DNA of 64,000 bases, from positions 9,158 through 73,157 of the forward strand of contig CAZKND010000001.1 of assembly GCA_964554215.1 (NCBI GenBank). The letters are read 5' to 3'. Position 1 is the stretch's first letter. Each line of letters starts with the position of its first letter. The notes under the pieces are model-generated. The model saw nothing but the letters and a program-made list of their open reading frames with translations, searched no databases and was not told the origin of the DNA. Of the stretch, positions 31,783 to 55,089 are shown one piece after another. This DNA comes from Candidatus Hadarchaeota archaeon. GTDB taxonomy: Archaea; Hadarchaeota; Hadarchaeia; Hadarchaeales; JAGGTB01. A program made the translations under genes and the position numbers.

Positions 31783-32562
31783 ATGCCAATACAAGATTTC
31801 GGCGCGGTATGCGACATAAGTACGCTGACAGATAAGAACTCATTAGAAAAAGCACATCGTTACTTCAAAAACTCCGGTCTATACCTCCCTTCCCCCACAT
31901 ATTCCTGGCTTTCCAGATCTAAGCTTATAGAAGTCCGAAACCAACCAGTGAAATACAGCCTAATCCGAAAAGAAGTACAGAAAAGGAAAATATACCCTAT
32001 CCACTTCCCGGAGATATATGACGAACTCAGCAGACAAATCCTATTTGACACAGATCATAATATTCCCCTAACCGACATAAGAAGTCTATTACTGAGCACT
32101 CATCTTCAAATTCCCACTCTCACATTTGACCCGGAAATGTTGGAACGCATTTCAAAAGAAATAGGGATGATAACAATGAAAGAGATTAAAGTGAACTCTC
32201 ACTGGAAAAAACTCAAAGAGATACTCAGACTATACAGAGAAATGCTCTTCAAAGCAGGAGCAGAATTTCACAAAAATATTGAAAAAAATCAAACTTTTCC
32301 TCAAATAACTCAAGAAATTGAAGAATCACAAAAAGAAGAGATTAAGAGAACGTTAAACGCAATAAATGGAATTCAGGAAAATCAAAAAGCTGGTAAAAAA
32401 ATAAAGTTTCACTTTCTGACCTGGGATATATTACCCAGTCTCAGAGAATACCATGCTCAAAAAATACTACCATCTCAGATGATAGAAAGAATATGTGAAA
32501 GAACAACTCTTCTTATAGCTACCCCTGAAAATTTCGAAAAAACGAAAAATATAGGTAAATAG
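31783..32562 (+). CDS. hypothetical protein (259 aa from the ATG at 31783)
   Basis: ORF with no recognisable domain. Lies in a lower-GC block. Confidence 0.4.
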   Translation: MPIQDFGAVCDISTLTDKNSLEKAHRYFKNSGLYLPSPTYSWLSRSKLIEVRNQPVKYSLIRKEVQKRKIYPIHFPEIYDELSRQILFDTDHNIPLTDIRSLLLSTHLQIPTLTFDPEMLERISKEIGMITMKEIKVNSHWKKLKEILRLYREMLFKAGAEFHKNIEKNQTFPQITQEIEESQKEEIKRTLNAINGIQENQKAGKKIKFHFLTWDILPSLREYHAQKILPSQMIERICERTTLLIATPENFEKTKNIGK

Positions 32563-32638
32563 TTCGAATACACGGAGAAAATTAATAAAATAAACGGAAA
32601 AACAAAAACTCTGAAAATGATTAAAACGGCGGATCAAA

Positions 32639-33976
32639 ATGAAAAAGAAGATTACAGCTGTACTTCTAATACTTTCATTCCTAATCCTACTACCTAGTAG
32701 CAATTTTGTAGTACAGAACTACGCCGAAAGAGATTACGTTCAATACAAAACCGAACCAGAAAATTATAATCCTCCAATCATCAAAATGTCGGAAAACTCA
32801 GGTCTATCGACAAAGATATGGTCAGAAAACAAATACACATACGAAGAAGTTGAAAACTTTCAAGATACTAGAAAAGTTGTTGACCATTATGAAGAAAAAC
32901 CAAAGTACGGAGTGTGGTCCGCAGACTCCTATACCTCAAGAATCCAAGTAGAAGCGGATCTTTCCGAAATGGACGAAGACACTCTAAGTTATCTGGAATC
33001 TACAAAAGACGAGGATTGGTGGTTAAACTATTTTGAATCAGTTTCTTACGGTAGACCTCGAAATTTTAGTTTAGAACCTAATGAAAAGCAAAAATTCGAA
33101 TATGGATTCCAAAATTTTCAAGGATTCATAAATTGGAGAGATTTTAGAATCAGAGGAAGGTTCGGAACCTACTATCATATCCCCATTCCTAGAACTTATA
33201 GATACTTAAAAGAGGAAGGAAAATACCAAGTTCCAATTTATAAAGATGAAAAATACACCCGTTGGCGTACTAAAACTTTCGAAAACATAGAATACGAAGC
33301 AGAAGGATGGAAAAAAGCGGAAATAGAAGTGGAACTTTCAGAATATACCCCTCCCAGCTATATCGAAGACAATATTTATTTGAAATCTAAAGTCAAGCCT
33401 AACGGACTAAACGTAAAACTAGATAATAATATCTTAGACTCAAAATCTTCTGTAATACACCTTAGTATTCAACCTACAAATAAAATGAAAAAAGGGAAGT
33501 ATCCCATCTTTTTAGAAGCATACACCTCTGAAAATGAGAAAATTGACACATCAAAATACAAATTAAACCTCAAAAAAGGAAGTGTCCCTGAAAACAAACA
33601 TAGAAAAATAAACGAAGAAGTATCCGATAAAAAACCGGATGAGAAAGGAGATTCTAAGGAGGGTGAACAAAAAGAATGGGTTGGAGTAGGAGGAACAGTT
33701 TACTCCAGTAAAACAGGTGACAAACTAATAGAATACTCAGATGGAGTAAAAGTCCACATCGAAAGAGATGGTTTTTCCGGAACAGCCTCATGGACCACAT
33801 CAACACAATATATTCACAAAAATCACACATATCAAGACAAAACCTGGGAAATGAAACTAAGAGCTACCGCAGATGGTTACTATAGAGAAACTGCTCAAGT
33901 AACGGATTCTACCGATGACCATGGATGGGCTAACCAGGACTTCGAATTAAAACCCAATTCTAATTTTATAAACTAA
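32639..33976 (+). CDS. hypothetical secreted protein (445 aa), rich in Tyr/Trp/Lys/Glu
   Basis: N-terminal signal peptide MKKKITAVLLILSFLILLPSS. No known domain. Lower GC by eye. Confidence 0.5.
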   Translation: MKKKITAVLLILSFLILLPSSNFVVQNYAERDYVQYKTEPENYNPPIIKMSENSGLSTKIWSENKYTYEEVENFQDTRKVVDHYEEKPKYGVWSADSYTSRIQVEADLSEMDEDTLSYLESTKDEDWWLNYFESVSYGRPRNFSLEPNEKQKFEYGFQNFQGFINWRDFRIRGRFGTYYHIPIPRTYRYLKEEGKYQVPIYKDEKYTRWRTKTFENIEYEAEGWKKAEIEVELSEYTPPSYIEDNIYLKSKVKPNGLNVKLDNNILDSKSSVIHLSIQPTNKMKKGKYPIFLEAYTSENEKIDTSKYKLNLKKGSVPENKHRKINEEVSDKKPDEKGDSKEGEQKEWVGVGGTVYSSKTGDKLIEYSDGVKVHIERDGFSGTASWTTSTQYIHKNHTYQDKTWEMKLRATADGYYRETAQVTDSTDDHGWANQDFELKPNSNFIN

Positions 33977-34005
33977 ATCTAGAAAAAGGAAAGGAATGTG
34001 AAACC

Positions 34006-34884
34006 ATGGGAGAAAACAAAAAAGGTACTAATCAGGATAATAGTTCCGCTTTCACCTACCTAATAGCTTTACTCGTAGTAATATTCATAATCGGAACTTC
34101 TTTAGCAATAACGCCTTTAGGAGATATACTATCCGAAGAATTAGCTGACAGTAAATTTGTCGAAAGTTATGATAACAAAAACTTGAGCAAAAAAGACAAC
34201 TCAAACATACAAGACGAGAACAAAAAAGTGACCTTCACGTATACTGCAAAATACAATCACCTTGGAACAGAAAACGATATATTATTAGACGGTACTGTTT
34301 TCTTCTCCTTTCCAACACCAATGATAGAGAATAATCCTGCAGTGAACCTAGGTCCATATAATCACAAAATTGAAAATAGTACCGTTCAGCTCTTGGCCAA
34401 TTATAAAGAAAACGATGAGAATATAACACAAGTTCAAATAGAAAATGGAAATTATGGAAAATTAATTGACCCACGACAAGACGCAATATTCTCCAAAAAA
34501 CCCTTCCTCTCTAATCCGGAAAATCATGGTAAAAAAATTACAGTTCAATCATCGGGGGGTGGTTTCACTGAAGCTTTTAGAAAAAAAGGACCTGGAGGAG
34601 CAATTTATGAACACGAAAGTATACTAATTGAAGTAAAATTTTCAGTTCAAAAAGAAAAAACAGACGAGGTAACCCTTGAGGATCAAAAAGGCAATATTTC
34701 ATCAAAAATTATTGGAACTACCGATGGACCCAATACAAATCATACTGTTATCCCAATCCAATACTCTGTCTCAGTAACACTTTCTCGAGAAATCGAAAAC
34801 AAACAAAAAGTCGATAAATTTAGATTCAAGGCAGAAAAACCCATACCCAAAGATAAATCTGTTGAACTGAAAAAGATTGCTTAA
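34006..34884 (+). CDS. hypothetical membrane-anchored extracellular protein (292 aa), Asn/Lys-rich
   Basis: Single N-terminal TM helix (FTYLIALLVVIFIIGTSLAI). No known domain. Immediately downstream of the secreted ORF. Confidence 0.45.
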   Translation: MGENKKGTNQDNSSAFTYLIALLVVIFIIGTSLAITPLGDILSEELADSKFVESYDNKNLSKKDNSNIQDENKKVTFTYTAKYNHLGTENDILLDGTVFFSFPTPMIENNPAVNLGPYNHKIENSTVQLLANYKENDENITQVQIENGNYGKLIDPRQDAIFSKKPFLSNPENHGKKITVQSSGGGFTEAFRKKGPGGAIYEHESILIEVKFSVQKEKTDEVTLEDQKGNISSKIIGTTDGPNTNHTVIPIQYSVSVTLSREIENKQKVDKFRFKAEKPIPKDKSVELKKIA

Positions 34885-38818: not shown

Positions 38819-39577
38819 ATGTTTGATGACGATAAATTCAGAAATCTGAGAATATTTAATCTTTCGATGGGATTTTTCCATCTGATTCAGTCCATGTTAA
38901 TGATATTTCTTAGCACAGACTTCGCGATATCAGTGACGAGTACCTACATGCAGGGACCACCAGGTACTGTAGAAGTAGCAAGAGAGGTTCTATTCGATAT
39001 AAAATTAGGACCTGCAATCGCATTGTTCCTATTGCTCTCAGCGGTGGCCCATTTCTATCTCTCATCTGTAGGTTTTGATTGGTACAAAGAAAATCTAAAA
39101 AATCATATAAATAAGGCTCGATGGATAGAGTATTTCTTCAGCAGTTCTCTCATGATCGTTATCATAGCTATGCTGGTTGGAATCACCGATTTAGCAGCTT
39201 TGGTAGCCTTGTTTGTTGTAAACGGATCCATGATCTTGTTCGGTTGGCTAATGGAATCATATAATCAAAACACTGAAGATGTTGCTTGGTCACCTTTCGT
39301 ATTCGGATGCATCGCCGGGATTGCTCCCTGGATTGCAATAGCCATCCGGCTAGCAACAGCTTTCTCCTTCACTTCCGTTCCTATTCCAAGTTTCGTTATC
39401 TGGATATTTGTATCGATAGCTATCTTTTTCAATATCTTTGCAGTTAACCAAGCCTTACAATACAAAGAAGTAGGGCCGTGGGAGAACTATCTTTTCGGAG
39501 AAAAGGTCTACATAGCCCTCAGCCTCATCGCGAAATCATTGCTAGCTTGGCAGGTCTTTGCAGGCACACTGGTCTAA
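38819..39577 (+). CDS. heliorhodopsin (7-TM retinal protein, inverted topology)
   Basis: FNLSMGFFHLIQ ... TYMQGPPGT ... WIEYFFSSS ... NGSMILFGWLMESYNQ ... FGCIAGIAPWIAIAI ... QALQYKEVGPWENYLFGEKVYIALSLIAKSLLAWQVFAGTL align block-for-block with heliorhodopsin 48C12 as I recall it. The Schiff-base lysine is in SLIAKS (codon 39533-39535) and the counterion Glu is in WIEYF. Confidence 0.85.
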   Translation: MFDDDKFRNLRIFNLSMGFFHLIQSMLMIFLSTDFAISVTSTYMQGPPGTVEVAREVLFDIKLGPAIALFLLLSAVAHFYLSSVGFDWYKENLKNHINKARWIEYFFSSSLMIVIIAMLVGITDLAALVALFVVNGSMILFGWLMESYNQNTEDVAWSPFVFGCIAGIAPWIAIAIRLATAFSFTSVPIPSFVIWIFVSIAIFFNIFAVNQALQYKEVGPWENYLFGEKVYIALSLIAKSLLAWQVFAGTLV

Positions 39578-42842: not shown

Positions 42843-42967
42843 AACTTATGATTATTTTTGAGCCATTACCTACTCAAATCTATAGATTATTCAAAAGCAT
42901 TAATGGAATACATAATACAAAGTTATCCGTAGACATTATGCACATCTCAACGAAGTCAAATCGAAAA

Positions 42968-43396
42968 CTATTCGTCCTTTTTCATCTCTTCTTCTACTTC
43001 TTCAAGACCATCTGAAATTTCTGTATCAAGCTCAATCTCTTCATCTTCCGCAGCCTCACCTGTCATAGAATCTATCATCTCTTCAACCTTCTCACCACTG
43101 AACTCCTCGTTCGTCAAAATTCCTTCACTGGTTATATCAACTGCCGTAGACAATGCTTCGTCCATAGATTCAGCTTTAAGCATGGCCTTTTCCATCTCCT
43201 TCTGGGTTGAAGCTATATCTTCAATCTCCGCACCCTCACCGATGGATTCCGCAACATCTTGAGCGAATTCTACAAAATTTCCGGAAAGTTTTACTAATTC
43301 TCTCTGTATCTGAGCTTCTTCCATTACCATCAAAAGCTTCTTACCTCTCTGAATTCTTTCCTGAAGAGTGAGATACTTTTTCGCCTGTCTTTTCAA
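42968..43396 (-). CDS. Snf7/ESCRT-III-like coiled-coil protein, apparently lacking an N-terminal start (possible pseudogene or 5'-truncated gene)
   Basis: The only start codon is the TTG at 43396. The reading frame stays open a further 43 codons upstream (KQRTIRYRKAKSKINKYISNLKELQNKVFEQGKEAASLNDKKF) with ESCRT-III-like composition (GKEAA...L.KRQAKKY) up to a TAG at 43526-43528. The C-terminal half is acidic, as in ESCRT-III. Confidence 0.35.
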   Translation of the reverse strand: MKRQAKKYLTLQERIQRGKKLLMVMEEAQIQRELVKLSGNFVEFAQDVAESIGEGAEIEDIASTQKEMEKAMLKAESMDEALSTAVDITSEGILTNEEFSGEKVEEMIDSMTGEAAEDEEIELDTEISDGLEEVEEEMKKDE

Positions 43397-43695
43397 AAAT
43401 TTCTTATCATTCAGACTCGCGGCCTCTTTACCCTGTTCAAAAACCTTATTTTGAAGTTCTTTAAGATTAGAGATATACTTGTTAATCTTGCTTTTCGCTT
43501 TCCTATAACGGATTGTTCTCTGCTTCTATCGAGACCTGATTCCGTAAAATCTAAAATGCTTGTCCTACCCTACTTTTGAATGTGCAGGAAATACACCTCC
43601 TCTCGATCCACCCTCCGGAAGAGGTGTACTCCTTTTCAACCACATCACTTGCAATACAAACTCAGCAAAAAAAGGATTTCAGAAGAGCCAAAAAA

Positions 43696-43710
43696 ATTTA
43701 AATAATTTGT
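43696..43710 (+). promoter_or_regulatory. BRE/TATA-like promoter element TTTAAATAATTTGT preceded by an A-run
   Basis: Lies 57 nt upstream of the GTG of the 170-aa gene. The identical 14-mer occurs at 51721-51734, upstream of the 508-aa gene. Confidence 0.5.
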
Positions 43711-43766
43711 CATCCGAACAAGAGAACTAAGAAATAACCTCTAAAATAACAAAGGAGGTGAGATTT

Positions 43767-44270
43767 GTGGCAGCAGGATTTAATTCAATGAGAGCAATGG
43801 CGGAACTCATGAGTCAAATGGACAAAGATGAAACCGTTACGTTGATTGAGTCTTCCAGAGATATTCTTGACGCTCTTGCAGAAAACCCTGAAGTATTGAA
43901 AACATTCAGTTCTATCCTGAAAGAATTAGCAGAAGATGAAGAAATCGCTAAAGGTTTATCCAATTTAGTTTCCTTAGCCGGACCATCTATCGATGCTCTG
44001 AACAACACAATGACTCCCGAAGCAGTAGACATGATGCACGAACTAGCACAGAACGATGATGTGAAGGAAGGCATAGGTTCTTTCCTATCAATTATAGACC
44101 CCGAAATGTTAGGGGCTCTACTACCAGTGATCGGATCAATTATAGGAGCAGTCCTATCTGAAATATCCAAAAATGAAGAAGCAAAAGAACACTTGATTGG
44201 TTTAATCTCTCATAGTGGTCCATTGGCTAAGAAAGCCAACACCGCTTTTATGGGTGAATCAGTCGACTAA
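43767..44270 (+). CDS. all-alpha helical-repeat protein (DUF1641-like?), copy A
   Basis: GTG start 7 nt after the AAGGAGGTG RBS. Differs from copy B (53366-53869) at 27 of about 167 aligned residues (roughly 84% identity), by my manual count. Confidence 0.6.
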   Translation: MAAGFNSMRAMAELMSQMDKDETVTLIESSRDILDALAENPEVLKTFSSILKELAEDEEIAKGLSNLVSLAGPSIDALNNTMTPEAVDMMHELAQNDDVKEGIGSFLSIIDPEMLGALLPVIGSIIGAVLSEISKNEEAKEHLIGLISHSGPLAKKANTAFMGESVD

Positions 44271-44302
44271 TGATTTCTAAAGACTTTTTAGAGGAATAAA
44301 AA

Positions 44303-44398
44303 ATGCCAGTGAAAAAGAAAGCTCTGGTCACAGGTGCGTGTGACTTTGTAGGTCCGCACATTATAGATTTTTTAGTAGCGCAGTATTCACGTAGGTAA
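44303..44398 (+). pseudogene. 5' remnant (31 codons) of an NAD-dependent epimerase/dehydratase gene
   Basis: MPVKKKALVTGACDFVGPHIIDFLV matches the N-terminus of the intact paralog at 53902 (MSGKKKALVTGACGFVGSHIIDLLV). Homology then breaks at about 44379 and a stop follows. Confidence 0.6.
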
Positions 44399-44420
44399 AA
44401 ATCCCTTTGTCTTTTTTGGT

Positions 44421-44457
44421 AAAATCTTCCCCGAGTTTTGAGGGATGGGGAGATTTT
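44421..44457. repeat. inverted repeat AAAATCTTCCCC / GGGGAGATTTT with a 14-nt spacer, just inside the insertion boundary
   Basis: Read directly from the sequence. The ATG of ORF 44445 lies in the spacer, immediately before the right arm (44447-44457). Confidence 0.5.
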
Positions 44458-44831
44458 GCCTATATCTTTTTAGATTCCCATTCGTGCCCGTGTTAGTTAG
44501 AGATTCGGTGTACGGAAAATTTTTGGAGGAGGATATTTACCTCTACCAGAAATTATTGAAAGTTTTCAGACTAGGACTGGAATCGACAAAGGTCGAGACT
44601 TCCCACTCCCAAATACTTGAAGCACTTTCAAAAAACATTTCAACCGTTCTTGAACCCGTGAGCTCTCGGACGCTCACCCCACATCACGAATTAATCGAAG
44701 CATACTCTATAAAGCTCACAAACGAAGTAAAAACATTCTACGAAACCGAAATCAAATCGCACGGAAATTCAGCCCGTACAAGCATGCAAAAAGCATTAGT
44801 CATCGTGCTCGAAGAAGGCGAAAAAGAATGA
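44445..44831 (+). CDS. hypothetical protein (128 aa) inside the higher-GC insertion
   Basis: ORF only. No recognisable motif. Confidence 0.35.
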   Translation: MGRFCLYLFRFPFVPVLVRDSVYGKFLEEDIYLYQKLLKVFRLGLESTKVETSHSQILEALSKNISTVLEPVSSRTLTPHHELIEAYSIKLTNEVKTFYETEIKSHGNSARTSMQKALVIVLEEGEKE

Positions 44832-44936
44832 GTTAATTTTGTAACAATGCCGAATCAAGGGAAGAATTTATTAAGATTTGTTAAATCATAAATATTTGTT
44901 GGAGCATAAAGAGACGAAAAATAAGAGTGGTTCAAG

Positions 44937-45098
44937 ATGAAATGTTGGATATGTCGAGAAGAGAAGGAAGACCTTAAGGAGATAGAAGCCATGGGGTCGG
45001 AGCATCACGTGTGTTCTGACTGCCTCTGGAGGGTATTAGACGAGCACGGTAAGCCAAAGTACGAGACAAAGCCTAAGTGGGAGAATATCTATGAGTAA
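44937..45098 (+). CDS. small zinc-ribbon protein (53 aa; CWIC ... CSDC); not in the supplied ORF track
   Basis: My own translation: MKCWICREEKEDLKEIEAMGSEHHVCSDCLWRVLDEHGKPKYETKPKWENIYE. Overlaps the start of the downstream epimerase gene by 8 nt. Confidence 0.35.
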   Translation: MKCWICREEKEDLKEIEAMGSEHHVCSDCLWRVLDEHGKPKYETKPKWENIYE

Positions 45099-46284
45099 TT
45101 CTGATAAAGTCCTAGTCATGGGAGCGTGTGGTAACGTCGGCTCGAAGTTAGTGAGGATTCTGCTGGATAACGGATACGATGTAAGGGCTAGCGACCTGGA
45201 GGATGCGAGTAAGGAGCTTTTAGGGGACCTTGATGTGGAGTTCGTTCCCGGGGACATCACGAAACCAGAAACTTTACAAGACGTTGTCGAGGACGTGGAC
45301 GCGGTTTTTAACACGGTATCATTCCTGGCCTACTCGAACCTTATCTCTTACGACCAGATGTACAAGGTCAATGTAGAGGGGGAAAGGAACTTACTTGAGG
45401 CCACCATGGAAAACAATGACGATCTTAAGGCCTTCATACACTGGGCTTCGGGAGAAACTTACGGTCTGGGCGGTTTGTTTGAAGAGCGGTTCCTCCATGA
45501 AAATGGAGAAAGTAGAGAGGATCATCCTCAAACTGCATCTGATGCTCCCTATCCGAAGACGAAATTGCTAGGTGAGCGAGAGTGTTGGCAGTACTACGAG
45601 GAGGAGGATTTACCATTGATAGTAATGCGACCATCCATGATTTATGGACCGGAGCCATCATTCGAGGACAGAAGGTGGCTCAGATACTCCAAGTATTTCA
45701 TGGTAATGCGGGATTTAGTAGAGATGATGGGAGGATGGCCAGGGCTTCTGAACTTTAAAAACCCGCTTGTCCACGCGGAGGATTCAGCCAGAGCGGCAGC
45801 ATTCCTTTACGAGAACAAAGAGGATGCCATAGGTGAGGCATTCAATATCGTGGACGACCAAAATTACACCATGGAAGACATCGTTCGTTTCATGTTTGAC
45901 TATTTCGGCTGGGATATTCAAGAAAATCCTTCTGCACATCTCAAGCCCCTGTTGAAGGGACTTCCACTGCCAAAACCCACCATCAGGGTGTTCAAGAAGG
46001 CGTACAGGGCCTGGATGGACGAAGTAAGGGAACAGGGACCAATCTGGTGGGACTCGAACTACCAGGATCACTATCTTGAAGAGATGCTGAGCATGGAGAA
46101 TTACTGTGAGGACTTCAAATATTCCAACAGAAAGATAAAGGATCTCGGCTTTGAATTCAAGTATCCGGACGTGAGGGACGCCTTACCAGACATATTCGAG
46201 AACTGGAAGGAAAAAGACCTGGTGCCAGAGAGCTCCGGATTCAAGCACTTCTTTCTCAAGGCATTCCTGCTGGATGAACGCTAA
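45091..46284 (+). CDS. NAD-dependent epimerase/dehydratase (extended SDR) family protein, divergent homolog of 53902-55089
   Basis: Rossmann motif VMGACGNVGSKL and catalytic YxxxK (APYPKTK). Noticeably higher GC than its surroundings. Roughly 35-40% identity to the other copy by eye. Confidence 0.8.
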   Translation: MSNSDKVLVMGACGNVGSKLVRILLDNGYDVRASDLEDASKELLGDLDVEFVPGDITKPETLQDVVEDVDAVFNTVSFLAYSNLISYDQMYKVNVEGERNLLEATMENNDDLKAFIHWASGETYGLGGLFEERFLHENGESREDHPQTASDAPYPKTKLLGERECWQYYEEEDLPLIVMRPSMIYGPEPSFEDRRWLRYSKYFMVMRDLVEMMGGWPGLLNFKNPLVHAEDSARAAAFLYENKEDAIGEAFNIVDDQNYTMEDIVRFMFDYFGWDIQENPSAHLKPLLKGLPLPKPTIRVFKKAYRAWMDEVREQGPIWWDSNYQDHYLEEMLSMENYCEDFKYSNRKIKDLGFEFKYPDVRDALPDIFENWKEKDLVPESSGFKHFFLKAFLLDER

Positions 46285-46430
46285 ACAGGGTATTAATTTA
46301 CCCCGGAAATAGGAGAGCAGGAAGCAGTAACTCAGTCTGTACCGTTGGAAGTACCTGGGCAACCCGAGTTATTCTATTAATCAATGGGGTCAAAATAACA
46401 ACTTCATAAAAAGTAAAAATCTTATATTTT

Positions 46431-46448
46431 TTGTTATATATACAACAA
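46431..46448. repeat. near-perfect 18-bp palindrome TTGTTATATATACAACAA, 8 nt upstream of the ATG at 46457
   Basis: Read directly. Partner palindrome at 46736-46753. Confidence 0.7.
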
Positions 46449-46456
46449 TATAGACC

Positions 46457-46732
46457 ATGGTAAAAATACTCATACTCTGGGACATCAAATCGAAAGGATC
46501 CAAAGCCACATGCTTCTATCGAGACTTGAAAGGTTATGATTACAAAACAAAATCAGGGAAAAAACATAGCGATGGAATATTAGATGAACTTCCCCAAGAC
46601 GTCTGGGACTTTGTCAGCCGTAGTGCACTATTGATAGAGAAGAAGCACGCAAACGAGATAGAACAAGTCTTCAAAAAGTATGATTCTCATCTAAAGTGGA
46701 AAAAGTTCAAGGTTGAAGAAAATGAAAAATGA
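46457..46732 (+). CDS. hypothetical small basic protein (91 aa) bracketed by palindromes
   Basis: ORF MVKILILWDIKSKGSKATCFYRDLKGY.... Weak resemblance to the Cas2/VapD-like beta-alpha fold start, too weak to claim. Confidence 0.45.
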   Translation: MVKILILWDIKSKGSKATCFYRDLKGYDYKTKSGKKHSDGILDELPQDVWDFVSRSALLIEKKHANEIEQVFKKYDSHLKWKKFKVEENEK

Positions 46733-46735
46733 GAG

Positions 46736-46753
46736 TTGTTGTATATACAACAA
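46736..46753. repeat. perfect 18-bp palindrome TTGTTGTATATACAACAA, 3 nt after the stop of the 91-aa gene
   Basis: Read directly. Its reverse complement is identical. Confidence 0.7.
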
Positions 46754-46799
46754 AAGGTTTAATAGAGTATATAAACAATTCAAGATTGAGGAATAGAAC

Positions 46800-49070
46800 A
46801 TGTCAGAAGGGAAAAAAGAATTAGAACTTACAGTAGCAGAAGCACGTAGGCAAAAAGATGTAGGCAAAAATGTCGCGAGGATAAGCAAAAAAGCGATGAA
46901 AGAACTCGGAGTCAAACAAGGCGACATCATAGAGATCGAAGGTAACAAAAAATCCGGCGCCATAGTAAGGACAAGTTATAGAGAAGACGAAGGATTGGAC
47001 ATCATAAGACTAGACGGTCTCGAACGGAAAAACACTGGTACTTCAATTGGAGAAAAAGTGAAAGTACGGGAAGCAGAAGTGAAAGAAGCCGACAAGATCA
47101 CTATAGCCCCTGCAGATCAAAACATACAGATACAAGGAGGAGGTAGAGCACTAAAACAGAGCCTCCTAGGACGACCGGCAACCAAAGGCGACCTCATTAC
47201 ACCAACAGGACAACCAGGAGATATATTCTCCCAAATATTTGGAGGAATGTTCCAAGGTACATCTCCATCTTCATCTTTTGGACTGGGAGAACTTAGATTC
47301 ATGGTGACAAACGTAAATCCGGACGACCTAGTGCTGATCACAAAAAATACGACAGTAAACCTATCTTCAAAAACAGCAGATATAGAAGAAGCATCCACCC
47401 CGTCTATAACCTATGAAGATATCGGTGGACTAGACAAAGAAATCCAGAGAGTTCGAGAGATGGTCGAACTACCATTAAGACATCCAGAACTCTTTGACCA
47501 ACTAGGGATAGAACCACCGAAAGGAGTACTCCTACACGGACCTCCAGGAACTGGAAAAACGCTAACCGCAAAAGCAGTGGCAAACGAATCTGACGCCCAC
47601 TTCCAATCAATAGCAGGGCCAGAGATAATGTCAAAATTCTACGGAGAATCAGAAAAGAAGCTAAGAAACATTTTTGAAGAAGCAGAGAAAAACGCACCTT
47701 CCATAATATTCATCGACGAAATAGACGCCATAGCTTCAAAAAGAGAAGAGGTAAGCGGAGATGTGGAAAAAAGAGTTGTATCACAACTCCTATCCTTGCT
47801 GGATGGATTAGAATCTCGAGGAAAAGTCATAGTAATAGCAGCTACCAACCGAGTGGACGCCGTCGACCCCGCACTAAGAAGACCAGGTCGTTTCGACAGG
47901 GAGATAGAAATCGGAGTTCCAGACCGAGAGGGACGTAAAGAGATCATGCAAATACACACTCGAGGAATGCCCCTTTCAGAAGACGTCGACTTAGATAGGT
48001 TGGCCGACAATACTCACGGTTACGTCGGTGCAGACCTAGCTTCCTTGTCAAGAGAATCGGCGATGAACGCTTTGAGAGAGATATTGCCTGAGATCGACTT
48101 AGAAGATAAGAGAATTCCATCCGAAACTCTCGAAGGATTAGAGGTATCCGGAGAAAACTTCAGAAAAGCAAGACAACAAATAGAACCTTCCGCAATGAGA
48201 GAAGTGCTGGTCCAAGTTCCCGACACTCCATGGGAAGATGTAGGAGGGTTAGAAGAATCCAAACAACAACTTAGAGAAGCAGTTGAATGGCCGCTGAAGA
48301 AAGACGAAGCGTTCGAAAGAGTCGGTATAGAAGCCCCACACGGTATACTCCTATACGGACCACCAGGAACCGGTAAGACAATGCTCGCAAAAGCCGTAGC
48401 CACCGAAAGCGATTCTAATTTCATCTCTGTAAAAGGACCCGAACTCCTATCTAAATGGGTCGGAGAATCCGAAAAAGCGGTAAGAGAAACATTTAAAAAA
48501 GCAAGACAAGCTGCACCAACCGTAATATTTTTCGACGAAATCGACGCAATGGTGCCAAAAAGAGGCCGGAGACAAAGTAGTTCACAAGTAGGAGAAAGAG
48601 TGATCAGTCAACTATTAACAGAGATGGACGGTCTAGAGGAACTAGAAAACGTAGTAGTTATCGGTGCAACAAACAGGCCTGATCTCGTAGATCCAGCTCT
48701 ATTGAGACCAGGAAGATTCGACAGAGTCATGATGGTTCCAGGACCAGACAAAGAAGCGAGAGAAGAAATCTTCAAGATACACACCAGAGAGATGCCAATA
48801 GCAGAAGATGTCGACCTAGAAGAACTTGCTGAAGAAACTGCTGGATACAGCGGAGCAGATATCGCAGCTGTTTGCAAAGAAGCAGGGATGCTCGCTCTAA
48901 GAGAAGATATAGAAACAGAAACCGTCTCCAAAGAAGAATTCGAAGAAGCTTTGAAATCGGTCGGTCCATCGATTACAGATGAGATAACTGATACCTACAA
49001 AGAGTTCAAAAGTAAACACGGGAAAGAAATCGCTGAAGAAGCTAAAAAGGAAATGAAAGCCTACTACTAA
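46800..49070 (+). CDS. cdc48: CDC48/VCP-like AAA+ ATPase (N-domain plus two AAA modules)
   Basis: Two Walker A motifs (GPPGTGKT twice), two Walker B DEID/DEIDA motifs and second-region-of-homology arginines. 756 aa. Confidence 0.9.
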
Positions 49071-49155
49071 AGCCTACACTTCTTTATTTTTTTTATTTAT
49101 TCTAACTACTAGAATAACTAGAAAAAAGAAAAAAAGAGAATTAAGATTTTCGTTC

Positions 49156-49539
49156 TCACTCCAATCTTATTTCTTTAGAAGATTCCCAAACGCCGTGCAG
49201 ATTGCATTTGGCCTTAGCTCTCAAAGGATGGGAATGGTCCAATTTAACCGTAGTCTTCATAACATAGTCACTCTTCTCAGGAGTTAGAGATAGTCGTGCC
49301 AAAAAAGTATCACCAGAATAAAGTTCCATCCATTCAATGAAATGCCCGGGTTCATTAGGATGCTCTTTATACTCCCCGACTCTAACCTCTACTTCAAAAG
49401 GCTCATTTTCCTCTACTGAATCCGGAGCATCTATAATTACTGTATGCTTCTTCTCTAAAGCATTCATATCTTCAGGGTCGTCAGTAGAAGGTTTGTTCAC
49501 CCCACAAAACAAGTCATCTTCACAAGATTCTTCAGACAT
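49156..49539 (-). CDS. sor: superoxide reductase (neelaredoxin/desulfoferrodoxin-type)
   Basis: Iron ligands in EKKHTV ... EHPNEPGHFIEWMEL ... CNLHGVW, in the order typical of SOR. 127 aa. Confidence 0.7.
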   Translation of the reverse strand: MSEESCEDDLFCGVNKPSTDDPEDMNALEKKHTVIIDAPDSVEENEPFEVEVRVGEYKEHPNEPGHFIEWMELYSGDTFLARLSLTPEKSDYVMKTTVKLDHSHPLRAKAKCNLHGVWESSKEIRLE

Positions 49540-49653
49540 AAAAAAATTTCACCTCCATAAAAAACTTAGTAACAATTAAACATACGGCAGAAAGAAAAAT
49601 AAACCTTTGCTTACCGCTATTTAGAAAATATTCTAAAACCTCAATTCAGATAA

Positions 49654-51507: not shown

Positions 51508-51720
51508 GATTCTATTTCCAAAATATTACTTTTCTATTTTTGACGAACCAACCTATTCGTGGATGTATTCTAATGAGTTTAGAGAGTGAAAAGAATAATA
51601 CTTTCACATTATCTCAGAAGAGAACTTCCTAGACAATGCAAAAATATAACCTCCAAACAATTCCCAACGATGCAAAATCCAAAAGCAAAAAAAGGAACTA
51701 TCCAGAAAAAAAGAAAAAAG

Positions 51721-51734
51721 TTTAAATAATTTGT
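51721..51734 (+). promoter_or_regulatory. BRE/TATA-like element TTTAAATAATTTGT upstream of the 508-aa gene
   Basis: 39 nt upstream of the ATG at 51773. A GGTGA RBS lies in between. Same 14-mer as at 43696. Confidence 0.5.
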
Positions 51735-51772
51735 GAGTGCATGGATAGAATTGCAAAGAAGTGGTGAAGTAA

Positions 51773-53299
51773 ATGCCAAAATTCGAGCTTTCGGAAATCG
51801 ATAAGGAAGGATTGGAAAAAGGTGCAGACAGGGTACAACCAGAATGGTGGCAGATAGTTGAAGTCTCCGGAGCTCTTGAAAAGGGAGAAGTTCCATCAGC
51901 TGAAGAAAGATTCGGAGGAGTTGCATTAGCTCCCATTGAACTTGACCATGGTATTCTTCCAAACTTGATGAAAGATTTTCTACCTCAAATCTTCATAGAC
52001 AACCCAACGATGACAACTCTAATTACAGACGAAGAAGGCGACCATATCATATGGGCAGGTGTAGAGCATGCCGAAGGCGGAGTTTACAAATGGGTTGAAA
52101 GAGTTGACCCTAAAGGCGAATGGGCAGAACCAGTGAATGAAAAATTATCAGAGGGAGATTATGAAGGTGCCTACGAAGAAACCAAAAAGATGGTTGAAGA
52201 AGAATTTGGAGTTGATTTAGGACTAATAAAAATAGCTAAACCTCAATTCTTTATAGAATTAGAAAAAACCTTTGAAGCTGCAGAAGAAGGGGAAGACTTA
52301 ATCGGATGGATTCCTCAAGTAATGGATTTCGGAGTCACTATTTTTGAAGAAGATTATATCAATTTTTATCCTGAACCCTATTTTTACCAATTTTTAAACG
52401 AAGTACTTGAACCCATGATAAAGGAATTAGATGGAGACGAGCTTGAACCTATTCTCAGGAAGTTCATCGACGAACCTCCACTCGACATAATCATACCACT
52501 CAAGAGCAGAGGGAAATCCTCCGCACTCAGAATAAAGCAAGATAGCGATAACATAGTGATAACTTCAGTCGATTTAGAAGTCAATGAGGAATTGTATTCA
52601 GACGATGTGAAAAAACTAGCTCAAAATTACAGGGACAAGTTCCCCGAAGCGGACTTAGTTCTTTCCCTAAACGTCAATGAAGACTTAAAGAATCTACTAA
52701 GTCAGCTAATGACAGACATTCCGATGAGTGAAGAAACATACGCTAAAATAGGGACCTATGTGGGCAATCTGTTAAACTCACTTGGAGAAGATGTTTGGAT
52801 TGAAATGAATGATAACTGGCTTAATCTAAACAACATCTTGGAGTGGGCGGAAGAATTGTTGGATTATGACATCAGAGAGCTTAATCTACCTCTAGATATG
52901 GTGATGGTGGGAATGGAAAAAACGCTATCCCAACATCCTATGGGAATATTCGTCACGGACGAAAACAGAGAATTGGTAACATCAATAGTAGCAGACTTCA
53001 CGGAAGATGTCCCTAAACTTGAAACAGTAAACAAAAGTGAACTAGAGGAAATATTTAAAATAGAAGGTTCAAATGCAGTGAGCGAAGCTGTTTCCGAACT
53101 TCCTGAGGAATATGGAACTGTCCACCCATGTATCGAGGTTAAGATAGACGAGATAGTACCTATAGTCGCCGAACTAAAGAAATCAATGAAAGAGCCTAGA
53201 AGATCTCCGCTATACCTCATGAGAATTCTAACTTACCTAGGGGACATTTTAGAAAAAGGGATAAACTTCTCAGATTCTCCTTATCAGTTAACAGAATAA
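51773..53299 (+). CDS. hypothetical acidic protein (508 aa), no recognisable domain
   Basis: Long ORF with normal codon usage, its own promoter and RBS. Sits upstream of the 170-aa helical protein (copy B). Confidence 0.5.
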   Translation: MPKFELSEIDKEGLEKGADRVQPEWWQIVEVSGALEKGEVPSAEERFGGVALAPIELDHGILPNLMKDFLPQIFIDNPTMTTLITDEEGDHIIWAGVEHAEGGVYKWVERVDPKGEWAEPVNEKLSEGDYEGAYEETKKMVEEEFGVDLGLIKIAKPQFFIELEKTFEAAEEGEDLIGWIPQVMDFGVTIFEEDYINFYPEPYFYQFLNEVLEPMIKELDGDELEPILRKFIDEPPLDIIIPLKSRGKSSALRIKQDSDNIVITSVDLEVNEELYSDDVKKLAQNYRDKFPEADLVLSLNVNEDLKNLLSQLMTDIPMSEETYAKIGTYVGNLLNSLGEDVWIEMNDNWLNLNNILEWAEELLDYDIRELNLPLDMVMVGMEKTLSQHPMGIFVTDENRELVTSIVADFTEDVPKLETVNKSELEEIFKIEGSNAVSEAVSELPEEYGTVHPCIEVKIDEIVPIVAELKKSMKEPRRSPLYLMRILTYLGDILEKGINFSDSPYQLTE

Positions 53300-53365
53300 T
53301 TTGTATTACCCTCCTAGCAGGAGAACTAAGAAATAACTTCCAAAATAATAAAGGAGGTGAAATTT

Positions 53366-53869
53366 GTGGCAACAGGATTTAATTCAATGAGAGCAATGGC
53401 GGAACTTATGAGTCAAATGGACCAAGACGAAGCCGTTACGTTAATCGAATCTTCCAGAGATATTCTTGACGCTCTTGCAAACAACCCAGAAGTACTGAAA
53501 ACCTTCAGTTCAATTTTGAAAGAATTGTCGGAGGACGATGAAATAGCTAAAGGTTTCTCCAATTTAGTTGCCTTGGCCGGACCATCTATCAGTGCTCTGA
53601 ACAACGCAATGACTCCAGAAGTAGTAGACATGATGCACGAACTCGTGCAAGACGATGATGTAAAGGAAGGTATAGGTTCATTCCTATCGATCATAGACCC
53701 AGAAGTATTGGGAACTCTACTACCAGTGATCGGATCGGTTGTAGGAGCAATTCTATCTGACATATCTGAAGATGAAGAAGCAAAAGAACATCTAATGGCT
53801 TTAATCTCTCATAGTGGTGCCTTGGCAGAGAAGGCCAACACCGCTCTTATGGGTGAACCAGTCGACTAA
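53366..53869 (+). CDS. all-alpha helical-repeat protein (DUF1641-like?), copy B
   Basis: GTG start 7 nt after the AAGGAGGTG RBS. Paralog of 43767-44270. Confidence 0.6.
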   Translation: MATGFNSMRAMAELMSQMDQDEAVTLIESSRDILDALANNPEVLKTFSSILKELSEDDEIAKGFSNLVALAGPSISALNNAMTPEVVDMMHELVQDDDVKEGIGSFLSIIDPEVLGTLLPVIGSVVGAILSDISEDEEAKEHLMALISHSGALAEKANTALMGEPVD

Positions 53870-53901
53870 TGATTTCTAAAGACTTTTTAGAGGAATAAAA
53901 A

Positions 53902-55089
53902 ATGTCAGGAAAAAAGAAAGCTCTGGTCACAGGTGCGTGTGGCTTCGTAGGCTCGCATATTATTGACCTTTTAGTAGAGGACGATGACTACGAAGATGTG
54001 ATTGCAACAGATCTCGAGTCAGCTGATACTAGTCATCTGGAAGACAAAGACGTAGACTTCAGACCGGCTGACTTTACAAAACCGGAGACCATCGATGAGA
54101 TACTGGATGAAGACATAGACGTTATTTTCAACCCAGCTGCGGCATTTAATTACGAGATGCCCATGCAGGTGATGAAGAAAATAAACGTTGAAGGAGGACG
54201 AAACTTTGCAGAAGCTGTGGTTGAAAACGTCGAGGACCTAGATATATTCGTCCATGTTAGCACCGGAGAAATCTATGGATACAACATGTTTGGAAAGAGC
54301 GAAGAACTAGATGAAGACGGTCATTTCAAGGAAGTAGAATCTAAAACACCTGGTGAAGCTCCCTATGCAAAAACCAAAAAACTACAAGAAGAAGAGATTT
54401 GGGAACTACACGAGGAAGAAGATCTACCAGTTGTAGACATGAGACTTGGAACTGTTTATGGACCAGGATTGTTCTTTGCAAGACTGGTGAATCTTTTCAT
54501 TGACCTTGCGTCTCTCGGAAGATTCCCAGACAATATCAACTTTAGATGGCCGCTGGTCCATGTCGAAGATGTAGCTTCAGCAGCTAAATTCCTCGCAGAA
54601 AAAGGAGACGAAGTTATAGGCGAGGCCTATAATATAGTGGACGAACAGGAATACATCCTATCGGACATGGTTTACAAAGTAGCTGACTACATGGACATGG
54701 AAGTAGAGAACCTACCTAATATTCCTTCTATGGGTGAACTTTGGAAATTAATTCCAAAGGGAGAACTGGTAGAAGATATTCTAGACGAAGCTTACCCAGA
54801 ATACCAAAACCAAGTGGAAGACCGATATGACGATGATGTCTGGATGAAATACAACCATGCAGGACCATACGCAAAACTCTTGCTAAATAACATGCCTGAA
54901 TGGGACGATGATTTCACATATTCCAACAAAAGTTTGAAAGAAATTGGTTGGGAACCGAAGTACGAAAGTTTCCTCGATGCTATTCCAGAGATTATAGAAT
55001 GGAGTAAAGAAAACGGTTATCTCGTAGAGAATCCAGGTCTAAAGCATCTAGTAACAAAGGCTCTAATCTCCGACCCTTCAGAAGCCTAA
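53902..55089 (+). CDS. NAD-dependent epimerase/dehydratase (extended SDR) family protein, intact copy
   Basis: LVTGACGFVGSHI Rossmann motif and catalytic APYAKTK. 395 aa with a C-terminal extension. Confidence 0.8.
   Translation: MSGKKKALVTGACGFVGSHIIDLLVEDDDYEDVIATDLESADTSHLEDKDVDFRPADFTKPETIDEILDEDIDVIFNPAAAFNYEMPMQVMKKINVEGGRNFAEAVVENVEDLDIFVHVSTGEIYGYNMFGKSEELDEDGHFKEVESKTPGEAPYAKTKKLQEEEIWELHEEEDLPVVDMRLGTVYGPGLFFARLVNLFIDLASLGRFPDNINFRWPLVHVEDVASAAKFLAEKGDEVIGEAYNIVDEQEYILSDMVYKVADYMDMEVENLPNIPSMGELWKLIPKGELVEDILDEAYPEYQNQVEDRYDDDVWMKYNHAGPYAKLLLNNMPEWDDDFTYSNKSLKEIGWEPKYESFLDAIPEIIEWSKENGYLVENPGLKHLVTKALISDPSEA

Follow-up and report, generated by a model that had tools for sequence, protein, structure and literature searches.

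The extended short-chain dehydrogenase/reductase (SDR) family PF01370 has GalE, RmlB, and HpnA among its characterized members. In genomes, redundant copies of operons can decay by degenerative loss to pseudogene remnants, compositionally atypical genes that have been acquired drift toward the composition of their host (the amelioration concept of Lawrence and Ochman), and interspecies homologous recombination and gene-specific sweeps have been described for archaea such as haloarchaea. We analyzed a locus at which a truncated gene of this SDR family lies upstream of an intact, distantly related one, on a stretch of 64,000 nucleotides (nt) from a Candidatus Hadarchaeota archaeon (assembly GCA_964554215.1, contig CAZKND010000001.1, positions 9,158 to 73,157), hereafter the window. 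A first-pass annotation had read this arrangement as horizontal acquisition of one GC-rich segment that cut the native epimerase gene and supplied a distant homolog of it. The reading that we came to prefer, with moderate confidence, is instead that the region is a mosaic produced by at least four separate events, in which a decayed operon duplicate lies beside an independent, recently exchanged cassette.

Our comparison of this chromosomal slot rests on four lineages only. W is the species of the window, and W2 (L017) matches it at 92% identity over 44497-49584. Species L (L001, L010 to L014, and L018 to L023) comes from at least seven assemblies with a mutual identity of 99.8% and flanks ∼81% identical to the window, while species X (L015/L016, assembly GCA_964531345.1) is present in two assemblies with flanks 73 to 77% identical to the window. 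Protein identities place species X as the outgroup to W and L.

Contrary to what had been supposed, it was not the native gene that was truncated; the native set is intact at 51773-55089. This source locus (locus B, 51675-55089, plus strand) consists of a promoter followed by a gene encoding a 508-amino-acid (aa) protein (51773-53299, plus strand), a gene encoding a 170-aa protein (53357-53869, plus strand), and epi1, an intact SDR “epimerase” gene encoding 395 aa (53902-55089, plus strand). The same gene order recurs in a metagenome-assembled genome (MAG) of Thermoplasmata UBA9212 (L002), in a Hadarchaeota MAG (L003), and in a marine relative with 58% identity (L024/L025), and orthologs of epi1 are graded in identity (95, 58, 56, 50, 49, and 44%). 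Because the order is kept in three other lineages and the orthologs are graded, locus B is an old, native operon that has stayed intact.

The segment upstream of the GC-rich genes (copy A, 43713-44378, plus strand) contains a second 170-aa gene together with the opening 76 nt of an epimerase gene. It forms a 666-nt direct repeat with 53312-53977 (copy B), 87% identical over 668 columns, and the two copies lie in the same orientation 9599 nt apart. The match to the intact source locus at the nucleotide level extends to a copy of the operon promoter region (43652-43712, plus strand), which is homologous to 51675-51734 with a local alignment score of 28, against a maximum of 18 among 588 other segments of the window. 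A 21-nt motif, AAAAAARTTTAAATAATTTGT, occurs at 43690 and 51714 only. A 10-nt repeat, AATAATTTGT, is found at 43701-43710, which is both the end of the promoter copy and the fusion point, at 51725 in promoter B, and at 53295, where it spans the stop codon of the 508-aa gene. A deletion between two of these 10-nt repeats in a duplicated operon would give exactly the structure of copy A, which we read as a derived, decayed operon duplicate that has lost its 508-aa gene too.

The epimerase gene of the duplicate has been reduced to a stub. As the first-pass annotation had seen, the 170-aa gene is followed by an open reading frame (ORF) of only 31 codons (44303-44398, plus strand); 25 of these codons are homologous to epi1 and the last 6 are read from the adjoining junction DNA, with homology to the epi1 locus ending at 44378, 76 nt into the ORF (∼44379 had been given). 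Apart from the truncation after codon 25, the Rossmann motif GACGFVG has become GACDFVG in the W stub through a Gly-to-Asp change, and the species L stub is frameshifted by a 1-nt deletion at codon 3-4. The stub is a pseudogene, one of two lesions in the duplicate. Species L shares copy A, the stub junction, and the following ∼100 nt with W.

In the duplicate, the 170-aa gene (43758-44270, plus strand) remains an intact ORF in both W and L. The likely true start of the 170-aa genes is a GTG 9 nt inside the ORF (43767 in copy A and 53366 in copy B), 7 nt after a Shine-Dalgarno-like GGAGGTG motif, giving the 167 aa that are also called in species L. Between W and L, the ratio of nonsynonymous to synonymous divergence (dN/dS) of this gene reaches 0.37 in copy A, compared with 0.05 in copy B, suggesting that the surviving gene in the duplicate evolves under relaxed constraint. 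Site patterns among the four copies in the two species show ∼20 informative sites in the repeat that group the A copies apart from the B copies versus 4 and 4 for the alternatives, favoring ((A_W,A_L),(B_W,B_L)). Long antisense ORFs over the 170-aa genes were judged to arise incidentally from GAx-rich acidic coding sequence. The direct repeat, the gene deleted between 10-nt microhomologies, the truncated and mutated gene, and the raised dN/dS in the survivor are all features of segmental duplication followed by degenerative loss. The locus differs from that pattern in that a distant paralog of the lost gene is found directly downstream of the survivor, an arrangement that could be a coincidence, a tandem-duplication junction, or the outcome of selective retention.

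The GC-rich genes downstream of the stub appear to form a two-gene operon of their own, separate from the duplicate. A promoter and 5' region (44845-44936, plus strand) that is 88% identical between W and L and conserved in W, W2, L, and X precedes a 53-aa zinc-ribbon-like gene (44937-45098, plus strand), which is followed by epi2, encoding an extended-SDR protein of the NAD-dependent epimerase/dehydratase family with 397 aa (45091-46284, plus strand), and by a conserved 3' noncoding tail (46285-46355, plus strand), 71 nt after the epi2 stop that are 87 to 96% identical in the four species. The unannotated 53-aa CxxC...CxxC ORF and its 8-nt overlap with the next start (ATGAGTAA), both pointed out in the first-pass annotation, were confirmed, and every gene call preserves the overlap. 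Both cysteine pairs (C3-x2-C6...C26-x2-C29) are conserved in all four species, across which the proportion of nonsynonymous differences (pN) in the gene is 0.03 to 0.05 versus 0.15 to 0.47 for synonymous differences (pS). This argues for a real gene, presumably coupled translationally to epi2 through the overlap. Pfam RING-type matches to the protein stay below threshold (17.3 versus 21), and metal binding is predicted from the CxxC pairs.

Zinc-ribbon gene and epi2 occupy the same slot, upstream of a 91-aa gene and CDC48, in all four species. In species X the order is ParA, 406 nt, the zinc-ribbon gene, epi2, an 89-aa gene, and CDC48, without the DUF362 gene, the 170-aa copy, or the stub, so that the cassette apparently holds this position there with nothing displaced. 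No empty site, a locus lacking the element, came to light among the four lineages, and a metagenome scan anchored on the 91-aa gene returned species L again and no further lineage. The 3' tail matched no Rfam family and showed no covariation supporting a structure, an Rfam scan of 43300-46900 gave a chance-level match only, and a bacterial-type scan gave no excess of promoter- or terminator-like sites. As a separate observation, the 91-aa gene (46457-46732, compared with L017 1981-2250) has a W-W2 pS of 0.66 while its neighbors CDC48 and desulfoferrodoxin have 0.32, and it may be another short segment of different ancestry beside the cassette.

The full-length distant homolog reported in the first-pass annotation, at 35 to 40% identity, is borne out: epi2 and epi1 share 39% identity along their entire length (E = 1e-78). 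Both proteins score strongly against PF01370 (104.8 bits for epi2 and 107 bits for epi1, with a gathering cutoff of 20.9) and keep the GxxGxxG and Ser/Thr...YxxxK motifs. Residues G11, G14, G17, S120, Y154, and K158 of epi2 align with invariant columns of a 14-sequence family alignment, so that its catalytic motifs are intact and enzymatic activity is predicted. The best matches among solved structures are SDR oxidoreductases and epimerases. They are set apart from the characterized members of the family in that neither reaches any of the NCBIfam equivalog cutoffs (GalE, RmlB, HpnA, LegB, and others), the best being HpnA for epi2 (74 versus 367.65 bits) and RmlB for epi1 (76.8 versus 365.1 bits), and in that they share a C-terminal extension of ∼60 aa, ending in a PGLKHLxTKAL-like sequence and confined to a small clade of archaea.

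An exhaustive profile search of 1.84 billion cluster representatives (∼15 billion proteins) retrieved the epi2 cluster, then epi1-type proteins (365 bits) and a Hadarchaeota 370-aa cluster (324 bits), before scores dropped to 214, and it held no relative of epi2 with more than 50% identity outside the four species. In a neighbor-joining tree with 200 bootstraps, epi2 falls within a clade with 100% support, as the sister (72%) of the whole tail-bearing epi1 clade. The outcome that would have refuted the first-pass reading, recent paralogy of the two epimerases, thus did not occur: epi2 is a deep-branching member of the SDR subfamily of epi1 and not a recent paralog of it. The gene would add a second enzyme and replace no lost one.

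The composition of the zinc-ribbon gene and epi2 looks foreign. Elevated GC had been noted from 44379 to ∼46290, which holds for only part of that interval, since 44379-44900 has a GC content of 0.38 to 0.41, equal to the window mean (0.398), and values of 0.47 to 0.49 are reached only across ∼44900-46300. The tetranucleotide composition divides in the same manner, 45001-46400 having the joint highest distance in the window (z = 3.6) and 43001-45000 being typical. The anomaly lies in the third codon positions of the two genes. The zinc-ribbon gene has a GC content of 0.604 at these positions (GC3) and epi2 one of 0.584, compared with a mean of 0.356 for 58 other genes (standard deviation, 0.048; maximum, 0.462; z ∼5), and first and second positions are ordinary. 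GC3 of both genes is high in all four species, while that of copy A is ordinary (0.35). Among polarized single-lineage changes in the cassette, GC>AT changes outnumber AT>GC changes by 78 to 39 (P = 0.0004), and the flanking 91aa-CDC48 control, computed on a proper alignment allowing for an indel in the species X CDC48 gene, shows the opposite bias. A GC anomaly restricted to third positions, normal neighbors, and a net GC-to-AT flux are what ameliorating, horizontally acquired genes would show.

Divergence between the species is also unusual across the whole block. The W-L pS of 24 flanking orthologous genes ranges from 0.51 to 0.73, against 0.17 for copy A, 0.27 for the zinc-ribbon gene, and 0.19 to 0.21 for epi2. 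For epi2, a W-L dS of 0.21 to 0.24 is accompanied by a dN of 0.011 (versus 0.042 for CDC48 and 0.047 for epi1), so that dN/dS (∼0.05) is the same as in neighboring genes; both dS and dN of the cassette between species are 3 to 5 times below those of its neighbors, and measured against the 24 flanking genes the cassette is 3 to 4 times less diverged. Its identity reaches 92 to 95% in every species pair, X included, and falls to 0.73-0.87 within 100 to 150 nt on either side, the plateau of 0.90 to 0.97 being confined to ∼44900-46250 in all pairs. These data suggest that the block at 43540-46355 shares a more recent W-L ancestry than the surrounding chromosome, and that the cassette was most likely exchanged recently among related species, having come ultimately from an unsampled GC-richer relative. 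The short segment more similar than its flanks and the joint reduction of dN and dS recall the homologous recombination and gene-specific sweeps of haloarchaea, with the difference that the edges here are sharp and coincide with nonhomologous spacers rather than fading. An argument from unusual conservation of noncoding DNA in the block was dropped after control intergenic regions proved to be 78 to 95% identical between W and L. At locus B, the 170-aa gene (53357-53869, compared with L010 18259-18771) has a pS of 0.36, below that of the 508-aa gene (0.57) and epi1 (0.51), for which a slower clock or a second exchange are possibilities.

What had been taken for one insertion unit is a patchwork whose pieces, 44379-44479, 44528-44844, and 44845-46355, are differently distributed among the relatives. 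Junction DNA at 44379-44479, common to W and L (83% identical), has no further match in the window or in the fetched loci and no significant similarity to the species X spacer in local and global alignments with shuffles. It holds the inverted repeat that had been described as 11 bp at 44421-44457; the repeat is present, with 14-nt arms at 44418-44431 and 44447-44460 that are 86% complementary, but it does not fold in the sister species L (z = +0.65), where it is not conserved, and we dropped it as a feature. Homology among W, L, and X restarts at ∼44480 (TTAGTTAGAG...) with an old upstream spacer of the zinc-ribbon operon (44480-44527). Beyond this spacer, W carries a 317-nt insert (44528-44844, plus strand) in place of a spacer of ∼130 nt in L and X. 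The insert is absent from L and X and is found in W2 at 88% identity.

Junction DNA and insert together create the 128-aa ORF (44445-44831, plus strand) listed in the first-pass annotation as unknown. The ORF exists, and as a conserved gene we rejected it: neither L nor X has it, its frame in W2 is broken by a 2-nt deletion and a 17-nt insertion, and a homology search of protein databases matched only the ORF itself. Residues 86 to 124 match Pfam DUF2080 (PF09853), described in Pfam as a “putative transposon-encoded protein,” just above the gathering threshold (22.5 bits versus a cutoff of 21.5). There is no intact gene behind this marginal match, W and W2 carry different disruptions of the frame, and neither an adjacent transposase nor a homolog in the databases is present. 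The ORF is best regarded as a spurious read-through of junction DNA and a dead DUF2080-like remnant. On the right of the cassette, ∼40 nt (46356-46395) of W and W2 are likewise unlike L and X; that is, L and X share spacers on both sides of the cassette and W and W2 differ on both.

Taken together, these observations suggest the following order of events. The ancestral 508aa-170aa-epi1 operon, at 51.7 to 55.1 kb, is intact. A second copy, 9.6 kb upstream and with the same orientation, probably originated in the common line of W and L. Deletion of its 508-aa ORF exactly between two copies of AATAATTTGT would then have joined the operon promoter to the 170-aa gene, and with the epimerase copy ending after codon 25, only the 170-aa gene would have survived, under relaxed selection. 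The distribution of the genes and their dating indicate that the zinc-ribbon gene and epi2 were most likely resident when the duplicate landed beside them. On either side of the cassette, the W lineage has had its spacer replaced, the left replacement leaving the dead DUF2080-like remnant that gives rise to the 128-aa ORF. Separately, the block would have been exchanged horizontally among related species, with the cassette keeping its GC-rich third positions. As for the dating, the dS between copies A and B is 0.32 to 0.65, low in comparison with W-X and L-X synonymous sites, which are saturated in every flanking gene (pS of 0.74 to 0.94), so the duplication should be younger than the split from X. 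Species X would therefore represent the state before the duplication with the cassette already in place, and the truncation of the epimerase copy was probably not caused by the cassette.

Several points weigh against this reconstruction. Species X could have lost the DUF362 gene, copy A, and the stub by deletion, and as the outgroup it gives no polarity by parsimony. The dating assumes that there was no gene conversion between A and B. The right edge of the duplicate insertion is undefined since 44379-44479 has no counterpart in X, which leaves some probability for the arrival of the cassette as the truncating event. Only four lineages were available. The case for exchange meets objections of its own. 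The dS of epi2 follows the order of the species (0.155 for W2, 0.21 to 0.27 for L, and 0.31 to 0.35 for X), which is the pattern of a slow synonymous clock too, and noncoding DNA elsewhere is also highly similar between W and L, at the 78 to 95% given above. Contrary to what is seen for ameliorating acquired genes, the window contains no tRNA that could serve as a target and no integrase or transposase, only the dead DUF2080-like remnant; no boundary or terminal repeats were found at the cassette, the unit is only 1.5 kb, and all four known relatives have it at an identical locus. Scans of viral contigs (IMG/VR) with epi2 and the 170-aa protein gave no match, and the search of ∼15 billion proteins revealed no donor lineage. 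The first-pass claim of horizontal acquisition fits the GC3 and tetranucleotide data, the low dS and dN, and the GC-to-AT decay, while no donor can be named.

Much of this would also be expected if there had been no transfer and the cassette were an old, vertically inherited paralogous operon whose GC-rich codons and low divergence result from strong selection, for instance through high expression and codon bias with free synonymous sites at a plateau. The same locus in four species, a GC3 that is high in all of them, an epi2 dS that rises in species-tree order, 18 of 32 informative sites in support of (W,W2)|(L,X), and the absence of detected mobility machinery all agree with such a history. 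We nevertheless consider it rather unlikely. Exchange is favored over codon selection because dN falls in proportion to dS, with dN/dS at 0.05 as in the neighbors, because the excess of GC>AT changes indicates a composition out of equilibrium, and because copy A, with its ordinary GC3 of 0.35 and relaxed constraint, has a pS of 0.17, as low as that of the cassette. In addition, the DNA that flanks the cassette is different in W on either side, and the other 14 of the 32 informative sites are at odds with the species tree. More specifically, the zinc-ribbon gene and epi2 (44845-46355) might form a self-contained 1.5-kb cassette, made up of promoter, two coupled genes, and 3' tail, that is passed between species and replaces its counterpart at a fixed slot without a recognizable mobility gene, keeping its GC-rich signature, with the 170-aa copy retained as a partner of epi2, just as the parent gene would be for epi1; this more elaborate proposal is tentative, and we rate it as possible but still doubtful.

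The remaining explanations concern how the stub came to lie where it does. Insertion of a foreign GC-rich segment with the zinc-ribbon gene and epi2 into a complete second 170aa-epimerase copy, deleting the rest, would account for the abrupt end of the stub and for the next ∼100 nt, which have no homolog in X or elsewhere. It would also suit a cassette that is compositionally foreign and recently shared, and the equally low W-L divergence of stub, junction, and cassette, as if they had traveled together. This is nonetheless improbable: X has the cassette in the same slot with neither duplicate nor stub, the conserved GC-rich unit starts at ∼44845 and not at 44379, with a patchwork differently distributed among the relatives in between, no 3' epimerase remnant was found downstream, and the loss of the 508-aa gene by an unrelated deletion already demonstrates decay without insertion. 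Just as improbable, in our estimate, is a single tandem duplication of ∼9.6 kb, from upstream of the zinc-ribbon gene to epi1 codon 26, after which the redundant first copies, those spanning zinc-ribbon to RFC and that of the 508-aa gene, were deleted. Such a duplication would produce direct repeats 9599 nt apart, would place the stub just upstream of the zinc-ribbon operon, as its junction predicts, and would explain the epi1 fragment beside epi2 without coincidence, and the 508-aa gene offers a documented case of deletion between short repeats; however, the model requires an extra deletion of ∼7 kb, and the sequence left of copy A contains no further copy of the junction DNA. That the arrangement is a chimeric contig joining two populations is barely conceivable, even though every sequence used derives from a metagenome assembly: at least seven independent assemblies carry the species L arrangement, at 99.8% identity, species X is found in two, W2 independently confirms the right half of the W structure, and shared segments are 88 to 95% identical, not 100%.

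Other parts of the window provide the context for this locus. Its overall G+C content is 39.8%, and it carries core archaeal genes, namely, those for IleRS, TYW2, HerA/NurA, heliorhodopsin, ParA, CDC48, RFC, and molybdenum cofactor biosynthesis. A second tetranucleotide outlier (z = 3.6) at 32201-34800 is AT rich, with a GC3 of 0.27 to 0.30, and neither of the genes in it (32639-33976 and 34006-34884) matches Pfam. The heliorhodopsin gene lies at 38819-39577 (PF18761 in the gene tables of the orthologs) and is rearranged relative to the DUF2270 gene in species X. Between the DUF362 gene and copy A, ∼680 nt (42861-43540) contain a very acidic 142-aa ORF on the minus strand (42968-43396), and the equivalent position in species L is taken by ∼480 nt of unrelated DNA with no counterpart of the W sequence.

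Searches of genome contigs also bear on the conservation of the native operon. A scan with the 508-aa protein gave no confirmed match, and one with the epimerase alignment, informative for operon conservation, returned distant homologs only and no close relatives. In the relatives that keep the 508aa-170aa-epimerase trio, a polysaccharide pyruvyl transferase adjoins it (L024 223-6069, after the trio, and L002 4642-11140), and the L002 locus additionally has a DUF362 protein and an extra 170-aa-like gene. The pairing of the 508-aa and 170-aa proteins with this SDR subfamily across Thermoplasmata and Hadarchaeota points to an uncharacterized pathway, probably one for a surface glycan.

A truncated gene beside a GC-rich homolog suggests insertional displacement, and the relatives show instead a decaying duplicate beside an independent cassette. 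These are ordinary genome dynamics and leave the current understanding of the mechanisms unchanged. The cassette is nevertheless a small, clean example, from poorly sampled uncultured archaea, of a segment several-fold younger than its surroundings, and should the exchange be borne out, the cassette could serve as a useful marker for interspecies gene flow in the lineage.

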